From assembly GCF_046105845.1 (NCBI RefSeq), contig NZ_CP151004.1: a stretch of DNA of 64,000 nucleotides; one strand, given 5' to 3'. Positions 32,074 through 35,404 of this stretch are shown piece by piece. How positions within the stretch are numbered: the first letter of the stretch is position 1; each line of letters opens with the position of its first letter. This stretch comes from Escherichia coli. Its GTDB lineage: Bacteria > Pseudomonadota > Gammaproteobacteria > Enterobacterales > Enterobacteriaceae. The notes under the pieces are model-generated. The model did no database searches, was not told where the DNA came from, and saw only the letters and a list, made by a program, of their open reading frames with translations. The translations under genes were made by a program, and so were the position numbers.

Positions 32074-33357
32074 TTAGTCTTTAGCTGTTGCATTTTGTTT
32101 ATGAAACAGTTCACGGAACACCGGATAAATATCATCCTGGTCGCGGATATGCTGCATCGCAAAGTTGTCGAAAGTAGATTGCAGATGCTCATATTCTCGC
32201 CACAGTGTCTGATGAGCGCGACGGGTAATTTCGATATAGCTGTAATAACGAACGACGGGTAATAATTTTTTCGCCAGGATTTCATGGCAAAGCGGAGAGT
32301 CATCGGCCCAGTTATCGCCGTCCGATGCTTGTGCCGCGTAAATATTCCACTGTGCCGGGTTATAACGCTCTTTCACTACCTCATCCATCAGTTTCAGGGC
32401 GCTGGAAACAATGGTGCCGCCTGTTTCCTGCGAGTAGAAAAACTCATGTTCATCGACTTCTTTCGCCTGGGTATGATGGCGGATGTATACGACTTCCACG
32501 TTCTTATACGTTCTGCTGAGGAACAGATACAGCAGAATATAAAAACGCTTAGCCATATCTTTAGTGGACTGATCCATTGAACCGGAAACGTCCATCAGGC
32601 AAAACATCACTGCCTGGCTGGAGGGATCGGGCCGCTTCTCATAGTTCTTGTAACGTAAATCGAAGGTGTCAATGAAAGGGACGCGTTCAATTTTGGCACG
32701 TAATTCTGCAATTTCTTTGCGCAGACGTTCCTCTTCCAGCAGTTGCGCAGGTTCACTATTGCTGATGATGGCCAAATTCTCTTCCAGCGCATGAAGTTCC
32801 CGCCGCTTGCCCGCCGTCATGGCTGTGCGTCGTGCCAGTGAGTTCTGCAATGAACGCACAACACTGATATTGGCCGGAACGCCGTTAGCGGTATAACCCG
32901 CACGATGCGTTTTATATTCGGTCAGCTGGCGTTGTTGGTTTTGTTTCAGATTCGGTAAGGCCAGATCTTCAAAGAGCAGATCAAGATACTCATCTTTCGA
33001 AATCTGAAAGACAAATTCATCTTGACCTTCACCATCCTGGCTGGCCTGGCCCTGACCACTGCCGGAACCTCCGCCGCCACCCTGGGGACGTTCAATTCGG
33101 TCATTCTGGACGAAATGGTCATTGCCCGGATGCACGCGGTGGCGCAGACCGCCACGCCCCTGATGAAACATCGGTTCGCTAATATCTTCCGTGGGAATGG
33201 ATACAGACTCGCCGCTGTCGACGTCAGTCACCGAACGCTTATTAATGGCCTCGGAGATCGACTGTTTAATTTGCGCTTTATAACGGCGTAAAAAACGCTG
33301 GCGATTCACCATGCTTTTGTTTTTGCCGTTCAGACGCCGGTCAATAAACCAGGTCAT
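32074..33357 (-). CDS. yeaH: UPF0229/DUF444 protein, partner of YeaG
   Basis: 427-aa ORF downstream of yeaG on the same strand. Confidence 0.9.
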
Positions 33358-33469
33358 ATGCCCCCCGTACTACATTTGCCAACTGTATGCTACGCCTGTG
33401 TTGCCGCTTCTCTGGCCCACGGTTCGCTGTCGTTGTAGGCCCGGTAGCATGTGTACCGGGCCAGGGTTG

Positions 33470-35404
33470 TTAAGACGATTTACGTACGCGCAAATACCAT
33501 TCGCACAGTAAACGCACCTGTTTACGGGTGTAGCCTTTTTCCATCATACGGTCGACAAAATCGTCGTGTTTCTTTTGCTCGTCGGTTGACGTTTTGGCGT
33601 TAAACGAAATAACCGGCAACAGCTCCTCGGTATTGGAGAACATTTTCTTCTCGATAACCGTGCGCAGTTTTTCATAGCTGGTCCAGTTCGGATTGCGTCC
33701 GCTGTTATTCGCTCTGGCGCGCAGTACGAAGTTAACAATCTCGTTGCGGAAATCTTTTGGATTACTGATCCCCGCCGGTTTCTCGATTTTCTCCAGCTCG
33801 GCGTTAAGAGACTCGCGGTCAAACAACTGCCCGGTATCCGGATCGCGATACTCCTGATCCTGAATCCAGAAATCCGCGTAGGTAACATAACGGTCGAAAA
33901 TGTTTTGCCCATATTCGGAATAGGATTCAAGGTAGGCCGTCTGGATCTCTTTGCCAATAAACTCGGCATATTTCGGGATCAGATAACCTTTCAGGAACTC
34001 CAGATAGCGTTCTGCCTGCTCTTGTGGGAACTGCTCGCGCTCGATCTGCTGTTCCAGGACGTAGAACAGATGGACCGGGTTTGCCGCCACTTCTACATGA
34101 TCGAAGTTGAACACGCGGGAGAGGATCTTAAACGCAAAACGCGTCGACAGACCGTTCATCCCTTCATCGACACCGGCGTAGTCACGATATTCCTGATACG
34201 ACTTGGCTTTGGGATCGGTGTCTTTCAGACTTTCGCCATCATAAACCCGCATCTTTGAATAAATGCTGGAGTTTTCTGGCTCTTTAAGGCGCGAAAGAAT
34301 GGAAAAACGTGACAGCGTTTCCAGCGTGCCAGGGGCGCAGGGGGCGTGAGTCAATTCACTGTGATTAAGCAATTTCTCGTAGATTTTGATCTCTTCGGAA
34401 ATGCGCAAGCAATACGGCACCTTCACGATGTAAACACGATCGAGGAAGGCTTCGTTGTTTTTGTTATTACGGAAAGTGACCCATTCGGATTCGTTCGAGT
34501 GGGCGAGAATAATCCCGTTGAACGGCAGGGCGGAGATACCTTCCGTCCCGTTGTAGTTACCTTCCTGAGTGGCGGTTAGCAAGGGATGCAGCACTTTAAT
34601 CGGTGCTTTAAACATCTCAACGAATTCCATGATCCCCTGGTTGGCGCGGCACAGTGCACCGGAATAGCCGTAGGCGTCCGGGTCATTCTGCGCGTAGTGT
34701 TCGAGTTTACGAATATCGACTTTCCCAACCAGCGCGGAGATGTCCTGGTTGTTCTCATCACCGGGTTCCGTTTTGGCGATAGCAATTTGTTGCAGAATTG
34801 ACGGCCAGACCTTCACTACCCGGAACTTAGTGATATCGCCACCAAATTCATGCAGGCGTTTTGCCGCCCACGGCGACATGATGGTGCCGAGATAACGGCG
34901 AGGAATGCCATACTCTTTTTCCAGAATCTGCGCATCTTCCTGCGGATTGAAAAGACAGAACGGATGATCGTTGACCGGGCTACGCTCACCGTTGGCGCTC
35001 AATACATAAATCGGTACGAGCTGCATTAATGATTTCAGTCGCTCAGCAAGCGATGATTTACCCCCACCCACAGGCCCCAGCAGATACAGGATTTGTTTCT
35101 TCTCTTCCAGCCCCTGAGCCGCGTGTTTCAGATAAGAGACAATCTGTTCAATCGCGTCTTCCATGCCGTAAAACTCTTCAAATGCCGGATAACGTGCTAT
35201 GACCCGGTTAGAAAAGAGTCGAGAAAGTCTGGGTTCCTGGGCTGTATCGACCATGACAGGCTCACCGATAGCCATCAATAGCCGCTCAGCCGCGTTGGCA
35301 TAAGCACTGCGATCTTGCCGACAAGTGGTAAGAAACTCCTGCAGTGTGAACTCTTCGTCCTTGGCAGCTTCATATCGCTGGCGATAGTGATCGAATATAT
35401 TCAT
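33470..35404 (-). CDS. yeaG: PrkA-family serine protein kinase
   Basis: 644-aa ORF; Walker A-like GPVGGGKSS. Confidence 0.9.
   Translation of the reverse strand: MNIFDHYRQRYEAAKDEEFTLQEFLTTCRQDRSAYANAAERLLMAIGEPVMVDTAQEPRLSRLFSNRVIARYPAFEEFYGMEDAIEQIVSYLKHAAQGLEEKKQILYLLGPVGGGKSSLAERLKSLMQLVPIYVLSANGERSPVNDHPFCLFNPQEDAQILEKEYGIPRRYLGTIMSPWAAKRLHEFGGDITKFRVVKVWPSILQQIAIAKTEPGDENNQDISALVGKVDIRKLEHYAQNDPDAYGYSGALCRANQGIMEFVEMFKAPIKVLHPLLTATQEGNYNGTEGISALPFNGIILAHSNESEWVTFRNNKNNEAFLDRVYIVKVPYCLRISEEIKIYEKLLNHSELTHAPCAPGTLETLSRFSILSRLKEPENSSIYSKMRVYDGESLKDTDPKAKSYQEYRDYAGVDEGMNGLSTRFAFKILSRVFNFDHVEVAANPVHLFYVLEQQIEREQFPQEQAERYLEFLKGYLIPKYAEFIGKEIQTAYLESYSEYGQNIFDRYVTYADFWIQDQEYRDPDTGQLFDRESLNAELEKIEKPAGISNPKDFRNEIVNFVLRARANNSGRNPNWTSYEKLRTVIEKKMFSNTEELLPVISFNAKTSTDEQKKHDDFVDRMMEKGYTRKQVRLLCEWYLRVRKSS

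Follow-up and report, generated by a model that had tools for sequence, protein, structure and literature searches.

Background

The yeaG-yeaH operon of Escherichia coli, which encodes one protein of the PrkA family and one of the YeaH/YhbH (DUF444, UPF0229) family, was analysed in a stretch of 64,000 nucleotides from contig NZ_CP151004.1 (RefSeq assembly GCF_046105845.1), referred to here as the window. According to published genetics, yeaGH brakes metabolism and regrowth under nitrogen or carbon starvation. The expression of yeaG depends on NtrC and RpoN (PMC4664914, PMC10954441). The pair is the enterobacterial form of an ancient prkA-yhbH-spoVR gene triad, which E. coli has split into yeaGH and ycgB (bioRxiv 10.1101/072470). 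The literature on phosphotransfer by PrkA proteins is conflicting: activity was reported for E. coli YeaG (PMC8055822), but none was reported for the PrkA proteins of Bacillus subtilis and Bacillus anthracis (PMC9512850, PMC13001217). YeaH was likened to no known protein in the papers on E. coli.

In the MoxR-VWA systems, the client or the motor is bound by a part with a von Willebrand factor A (vWA) fold and a metal-ion-dependent adhesion site (MIDAS), and the force comes from an AAA+ ring (PMC13036017, PMC9976466). Our analysis suggests that the YeaG 'kinase' is really an ATP-driven motor and that YeaH is a metal-dependent docking protein.

Gene identities and family membership

A preliminary description of the window had reported a 644-residue PrkA-type kinase with a P-loop and a 427-residue DUF444 partner, encoded on the same strand. 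The listing of open reading frames (ORFs) confirmed the coordinates and lengths and placed both genes on the minus strand, which the description had left unstated (Table 1). The upstream gene is yeaG, separated from yeaH by a spacer of 112 nt (33358..33469). Both proteins belong to their families beyond chance. Pfam AAA_PrkA (PF08298) matched YeaG residues 19–380 (E = 1.3e-187; 623.5 bits, cutoff 25), the PrkA C-terminal domain (PF06798) matched residues 382–636 (E = 8.7e-71; 239 bits, cutoff 25), and the NCBIfam equivalog NF011999 spanned residues 1–644 of 644 with 1342 bits against a cutoff of 576. YeaH was matched by Pfam DUF444 (PF04285) over residues 4–421 (E = 4.2e-191; 636 bits, cutoff 27) and over its full length by the NCBIfam equivalog NF003708 (843 bits, cutoff 466).

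YeaG was 100% identical to WP_001019882.1 and YeaH to WP_000219686.1. The 4-kb yeaG-yeaH stretch was found, annotated as yeaG and yeaH, in 5425 of 5426 complete E. coli genomes with a best identity of 99.6%, and the window DNA shared 99.5–99.7% identity with the nearest complete genome in the collection. The locus is the ordinary, already described yeaG-yeaH starvation operon of E. coli and as such already known. Its portrayal as stress-associated, with poorly defined roles, agrees with earlier work (PMC4664914, PMC10954441, bioRxiv 10.1101/072470).

Table 1. Features of the yeaG-yeaH operon, with positions in the 64,000-nucleotide window.
Feature	Position	Strand	Basis
yeaG coding sequence, 644 aa, PrkA family	33470..35404	minus	ORF listing, Pfam, NCBIfam, RefSeq identity
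yeaH coding sequence, 427 aa, DUF444 / YeaH-YhbH (UPF0229) family	32074..33357	minus	ORF listing, Pfam, NCBIfam
Predicted vWA domain of YeaH, approximately residues 230–420	32098..32670	minus	AlphaFold2 model, Foldseek
Putative MIDAS motif DxSxS of YeaH (D256-V-S258-G-S260); T315 and D346 complete the site	32578..32592	minus	motif, homologue alignment
AAA+ ATPase module of YeaG, residues 19–380	34265..35350	minus	Pfam AAA_PrkA
Walker A / P-loop GPVGGGKS of YeaG, residues 110–117 (K116)	35054..35077	minus	regular expression
C-terminal 'PrkA' domain of YeaG, residues 382–636, all-alpha, no recognisable kinase fold	33497..34261	minus	
Sigma-54 type -24/-12 promoter TGGCATGAGAGTTGCT upstream of yeaG	35508..35523	minus	pattern match, conservation, literature
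Published pairing site of the small RNA SdsR in the yeaG 5' untranslated region, -31 to -22, CCTGTGCTAA	35426..35435	minus	position from PMC10954441
GC-rich stem-loop directly past the yeaG stop, 9-bp stem, no U-tract, GGCCCGGTA-CACATGC-TACCGGGCC	33438..33462	minus	sequence, fold
Intrinsic-terminator-like hairpin, 11-bp stem then TTTTT, 5 nt past the yeaH stop; operon end, before cdgI	32041..32069	minus	terminator scan

A predicted vWA fold with an intact MIDAS site in YeaH

The structure model and the conserved residues of YeaH identify its C-terminal half as a predicted vWA fold with an intact MIDAS site. The AlphaFold2 model had a predicted local distance difference test (pLDDT) score of 87.9 overall and above 90 over residues 230–420, where strands and helices alternate. 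A Foldseek search of the PDB with this model returned 81 matches at E ≤ 0.001, and among the 50 matches listed nearly all were vWA, MIDAS or integrin I domains with a probability of 1.00. The matches, with E-values down to 8.4e-07, included the vWA domain of CMG2, the MIDAS domain of Rea1/MDN1, NorD of NorQD and integrin I domains; Rea1/MDN1 and NorD contribute MIDAS/vWA domains that work with AAA+ motors. A weak Pfam VWA_2 match also lay over the MIDAS stretch of YeaH.

Homologues of YeaH numbered 3387 among 1.84 billion cluster representatives. In an alignment of 119 of these, with 37–59% identity to YeaH, the five residues of the putative metal site (D256, S258, S260, T315 and D346) were all invariant. 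The N-terminal half contained further invariant positions (D6, G154, G159, R176) and near-invariant ones (R7, R8, G78-N79, D113, F115), as well as a glycine-rich disordered loop at residues 90–112. A search of the literature, covering open-access text, retrieved nothing relevant that tied YeaH, YhbH or DUF444 to vWA, MIDAS or MoxR. Calling YeaH a DUF444 partner was correct as to the family, which Pfam and NCBIfam both assign, but it undersold a protein with a predicted vWA fold and invariant MIDAS residues.

The AAA+ module of YeaG

The assignment of the first half of YeaG to the AAA+ proteins is solid at the level of sequence. The reported P-loop was recovered as a Walker A motif. In an alignment of 29 PrkA homologues, reaching down to 25% identity, its residues G110, P111, V112, G113, K116 and S117 were invariant, and so were E263, N304 and D322-R323 further on. 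By position, E260/E263, N304 and D322-R323 were assigned as the putative Walker B residue, sensor 1 and arginine finger, whose usual succession along the chain they follow. An invariant PxD(E/D)xNQD motif was also seen at residues 214–221.

Below the Pfam thresholds, YeaG gave weak matches to AAA_16, AAA_5 and Mg_chelatase. When the PDB was searched by sequence and family profile, its only relatives were Thermus PrkA (9xip and two companion entries) and Lon, the latter over its Walker A region, with weak matches to RavA and FtsH in addition. The Thermus entries 9xip, 9xiq and 9xir together comprise 30 chains over three entries; a literature search for the paper behind them found none. Published experiments are consistent with an ATPase: a K116A mutant of YeaG was unable to complement in vivo (PMC4664914), ATPase activity was reported for B. 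subtilis PrkA (PMC9512850) and ATP-induced oligomers were reported for B. anthracis PrkA (PMC13001217).

Conservation of the gene pair and its linkage to spoVR

Synteny was scanned in one genome per species, giving 80 loci from Gamma- and Betaproteobacteria. A yeaH homologue followed yeaG on the same strand in all 80, which bears out the description of the two genes as a conserved pair. A Pfam-confirmed spoVR lay downstream in 61 of the 76 assessable loci, directly after yeaH in 60; in Brenneria the SpoVR gene was located 1.7 kb downstream of yeaH. The 15 loci without a following SpoVR gene all belonged to Enterobacterales, and the 64-kb window held no SpoVR/ycgB homologue. YeaG was unusually conserved, with 76–77% identity between E. 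coli and the Betaproteobacteria Thauera, Vogesella and Rhodoferax, and YeaH from the same betaproteobacterial genomes shared 52–57% identity with that of E. coli. An AAA+ gene beside a vWA gene was also found at more divergent loci (L083–L092), including phage-like contigs.

The two genes could in principle be mere co-regulated neighbours whose products act independently and whose adjacency carries no mechanistic meaning. Contact between YeaG and YeaH is deduced, and the 112-nt spacer with its stem-loop could permit different expression levels. We regard such independence as very improbable. The adjacency is complete in the loci scanned and is repeated in the divergent and phage-like contigs. 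Single and double yeaG/yeaH mutants have identical phenotypes (PMC4664914), and yeaG, yeaH and ycgB are mutual best cofitness partners, with strong cofitness (r > 0.7) in six bacterial species (bioRxiv 10.1101/072470). Synteny and genetics together bring independence of the two proteins close to refutation.

SpoVR itself had no PDB relative at E ≤ 10, and at the same threshold Pfam returned only its own SpoVR families. When YeaG, YeaH and a Vibrio SpoVR were compared with models of defence systems, no match was obtained beyond a negligible one to the P-loop of IetA.

A proposed remodelling machine

The constant pairing of an AAA+ gene with a gene for a vWA/MIDAS protein is characteristic of MoxR-VWA pairs and of midasin, and for this reason we propose that YeaG and YeaH form one AAA+/vWA-adaptor protein-remodelling machine that would work with the unlinked YcgB. 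We lean slightly towards this proposal, which rests on analogy. The MIDAS site of YeaH would serve to dock a target or else YeaG, whose ATP hydrolysis would drive the mechanical work. YcgB/SpoVR, whose gene lies elsewhere in the E. coli genome, may be a third component or a client. The outcome would be the published 'metabolic brake' in starvation. Any phosphorylation of proteins would come from the P-loop site as a secondary activity, and not from a Hanks-type domain. From the domain folds, motifs and synteny observed, we infer a physical YeaG-YeaH complex, the direction in which it would act and the existence of a client.

The C-terminal domain of YeaG and the question of its activity

The kinase label of YeaG is doubtful. 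Residues 382–644 gave no Pkinase-type match in Pfam even at E ≤ 10, and the PrkA family profile retrieved no kinase chain from the PDB at E ≤ 1. The motifs GxGxxG, HRD, DFG and APE were absent throughout YeaG in a regular-expression search, which found merely two YRD triplets. An AlphaFold2 model of residues 375–644, built on 39 sequences of 21–90% identity, was all-alpha with 12 helices (pLDDT 83.9; predicted template modelling (pTM) score 0.63), and the region did not show the bilobal fold with a beta-sheet N-lobe that marks Hanks-type kinases. A Foldseek search of the PDB with the model gave a best E-value of 0.69 and no match to a kinase fold, to the Lon protease or to any other protease fold. 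K426, the presumed catalytic lysine, was not an invariant column and was aligned to Asp in the Thermus clade. Among the Bacillus proteins, B. subtilis PrkA lacked kinase activity and was put forward as a Lon-like protease (PMC9512850), and highly purified B. anthracis PrkA showed neither kinase nor protease activity, the earlier protease signal being attributed to a contaminating hydrolase (PMC13001217). Of the name 'PrkA-type kinase' in the preliminary description, the family assignment stood, as Pfam and NCBIfam agree on it, but the kinase part did not hold up against the missing Pkinase match and Hanks motifs, the all-alpha model and the Bacillus papers.

The in-vitro kinase data for E. coli remain unrefuted, and they give weight to another explanation, namely that YeaG is a genuine Ser/Thr kinase of metabolic enzymes such as the isocitrate lyase AceA, with YeaH and YcgB as regulators or scaffolds and with catalysis in the C-terminal domain or at the P-loop, as in HprK/P. 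Autophosphorylation of YeaG and its phosphorylation of casein in vitro are cited in bioRxiv 10.1101/072470. YeaG is further reported to phosphorylate AceA in vitro when malate is present (PMC8055822), and a K426A exchange in the C-terminal domain abolishes its function in vivo (PMC4664914, PMC10954441). Phosphoproteomics of a yeaG deletion, the check that had been proposed for this locus, is already published and revealed shifts in the deletion strain (PMC8055822). We consider a genuine kinase unlikely; any true kinase activity would more probably stem from P-loop chemistry than from a Hanks-type domain.

The in-vitro phosphorylation and the K426A phenotype are at the same time the chief points that weigh against a remodelling machine of YeaG and YeaH. 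To these is added the shallowness of the C-terminal model, with only 39 sequences and the pTM score given above. Nor did a fold search with this model return the solved Thermus PrkA 9xip, although the fold library, which extends to April 2026, may lack this entry. Furthermore, we know of no client protein of YeaG-YeaH.

The proposal of a protease in B. subtilis raises the further alternative that YeaG is a Lon-like ATP-dependent protease that degrades regulators in starvation, with YeaH as its substrate adaptor. YeaG resembles the AAA+ module of Lon around Walker A, a vWA adaptor would be compatible with substrate delivery, and B. subtilis PrkA hydrolyses alpha-casein in an ATP-dependent manner that is lost in a Walker A mutant (PMC9512850). 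Against this, Lon covered positions 76–130 of the family profile only, the Lon protease domain did not match the profile at E ≤ 1, and the C-terminal model had no protease fold match. The inactivity of B. anthracis PrkA as a protease once fully purified, with a contaminating hydrolase held responsible (PMC13001217), points the same way. A protease is, in our judgement, improbable.

A remodelling machine of YeaG and YeaH is the reading that we prefer. A broader version of it is put forward tentatively, as possible but somewhat more likely to fail than to hold: YeaG would not be a protein kinase, YeaG, YeaH and YcgB/SpoVR would make up a class of AAA+/vWA-MIDAS remodelling machines not recognised before, which would impose metabolic quiescence, and large phages would carry the cassette, presumably to manipulate host dormancy.

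Promoter, untranslated regions and terminator

Within the 64-kb window, both strands included, the pattern TGGCA[CT]N5TTGC[AT] was matched once only, by the sigma-54 type promoter TGGCATGAGAGTTGCT, and this promoter was kept in Escherichia, Citrobacter, Pseudescherichia and one related genus. A transcription start approximately 12 nt past the promoter would give a 5' untranslated region of approximately 93 nt, which fits the -93 reporter boundary of PMC10954441. The sequence of the SdsR site, CCTGTGCTAA, is conserved in relatives as far as Serratia. A search for NtrC sites (TGCACCN4TGGTGCA with up to three mismatches) gave 24 matches where 21.5 were expected, none of them upstream of yeaG. Scans of the window for sigma-70 promoters and terminators gave counts at chance level, and only the terminator after yeaH was retained. 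An Rfam scan had no match in or near the operon; its sole match at the gathering threshold in the window was the small RNA sroD (13985-14070, plus strand, 115 bits).

The stem of the loop that follows yeaG, formed by GGCCCGGTA and TACCGGGCC, has a GCCCGG/CCGGGC core that recurs in five other Enterobacteriaceae with differing loops. The whole 112-nt spacer folded no better than shuffled sequence (z = -0.77), so that any function of the stem-loop can only be conjectured. The stem-loop was missing in Enterobacter Bisph1 and in Mangrovibacter, and Bisph1 has another palindromic stretch at this place. After the stem-loop, the spacer (33358-33469) contains an apparently decayed sequence resembling a repetitive extragenic palindrome (REP), where relatives have GCCGGATAAG...CCGGC.

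Neighbouring genes

The operon is flanked by mipA, yeaE, yeaD and gapA on one side and by cdgI and dgcJ on the other. The remark that the pair lies next to genes of cyclic di-GMP (c-di-GMP) metabolism was right: cdgI and then dgcJ follow on the same strand, beyond the terminator-like hairpin. CdgI (YeaI; 30452..31927) consists of MASE4 and GGDEF domains with a degenerate EGEVF motif, and DgcJ (YeaJ) of GAPES1 and GGDEF domains with an intact GGDEF motif. The longest ORF of dgcJ has 556 codons with a GTG start, 60 codons more than the 496-residue RefSeq version, and abuts the cdgI stop; the two genes together lie at 28781-31927 of the window on the minus strand. A functional tie between the operon and these neighbours was considered and rejected, because a terminator follows yeaH and the adjacency is not conserved, spoVR and not a GGDEF gene being found downstream outside Enterobacterales. 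The adjacency to the c-di-GMP genes looks incidental.

Phage-like and divergent versions

Divergent PrkA-DUF444-SpoVR triads were encountered in phage-like contigs (L084:3892-8735, L085:3985-8947, L088:4051-9662, L089:1-4856 and L090:1661-6493). Their neighbours encode DNA polymerase A, a DnaB/AAA_25 primase-helicase, PDDEXK, an Enc34 single-stranded DNA-binding protein, a 5'-3' exonuclease, a dUTPase, YopX and Phage_phiTE_241_C. Small genes of 60–80 aa were called on either side of DUF444, separating it from prkA and from spoVR (L084:5811-5999; L089:1777-1977 and 3127-3369; L090:3434-3634 and 4803-4988; L085:7196-7417; L091:878-1093), and the yeaG-yeaH spacer of E. coli has nothing comparable. 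On L090 (1661-3461), PrkA was called as two genes, AAA_PrkA (298 aa) and the PrkA C-terminal domain (281 aa), which may be a real split or an assembly frameshift. The order was DUF444-PrkA-SpoVR on L087 (267-5468), followed by an EF-hand protein and an extracytoplasmic function (ECF) sigma factor.

PHROG families exist for all three proteins of the triad. A tblastn search with YeaG gave 17 phage records, for example 600-kb uncultured megaphages, the Ralstonia jumbo phage RsoM2USA and the Thermus phages phiYS40 and TMA. The record of Enterobacter phage LAU1 (MN688132.1, 30.8 kb) opens with yeaG (1-1932), whose protein is 97.7% identical to that of the window. This gene seems to be a piece of the host chromosome that was included in the record, and not a gene of the phage.

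Significance

Few bacterial modules of unsettled biochemistry are as highly conserved as yeaG-yeaH(-ycgB). Nothing in the window itself is new, and the reinterpretation offered here is a modest, testable lead and not a discovery. It matters for experiments, which the accepted kinase label may misdirect. If YeaG is an AAA+ motor and YeaH its MIDAS adaptor, more phosphoproteomics would be of little help. The conflicting reports of kinase activity, protease activity and no activity would then be reconciled, and the throttling of metabolism under starvation by bacteria, and by some phages, would become easier to approach.

Comparison with known systems

The operon of the window corresponds to yeaGH of E. 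coli K-12 without a difference of substance: the proteins are identical, the neighbours are the same, and the positions of the sigma-54 promoter and of the SdsR site agree with the literature. The prkA-yhbH genes of B. subtilis and B. anthracis, together with spoVR, represent the same two families with the same linkage to SpoVR and are needed for a programme of the dormancy type, sporulation. The model TIGR02877 (spore_yhbH) matches YeaH, at a score below its cutoff. E. coli differs from Bacillus in that it does not sporulate and its ycgB is unlinked, and YeaG, unlike the Bacillus proteins, has been reported to have kinase activity.

The closest solved structures are PDB 9xip, 9xiq and 9xir, entitled 'Serine protein kinase' (Thermus PrkA, 692 aa), which match YeaG residues 78–603 with E = 7.5e-51 and approximately 30% identity. 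The 9xip sequence is 94–96% identical to named Thermus PrkA proteins. In comparison with YeaG, Thermus PrkA belongs to a distant clade and has extra insertions with Cys pairs. The likeness to Lon is confined to the Walker A region (YeaG residues 74–130), and unlike in Lon, neither an N-domain nor a Ser-Lys protease domain was detected in YeaG.

The MoxR/VWA pairs and midasin differ from YeaG-YeaH in several respects. YeaG does not appear to be a member of the Pfam MoxR families (AAA_3/AAA_5) and combines a long, insertion-rich AAA module with an all-alpha tail of 260 residues. YeaH carries its predicted vWA domain C-terminally, behind an N-terminal region that is conserved and unique. The yeaGH set, in contrast to the MoxR-VWA pairs, includes a third protein, SpoVR, and has no known metal-insertion client. 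Parts of YeaG nevertheless weakly resemble the AAA modules of RavA, NorQ, dynein and midasin, and the vWA model of YeaH matches the MIDAS domains of NorD and Rea1/MDN1. In NorQ-NorD, RavA-ViaA, CbbQ-CbbO and midasin (Rea1/Mdn1), as in yeaG-yeaH, an AAA+ gene adjoins a vWA/MIDAS gene.

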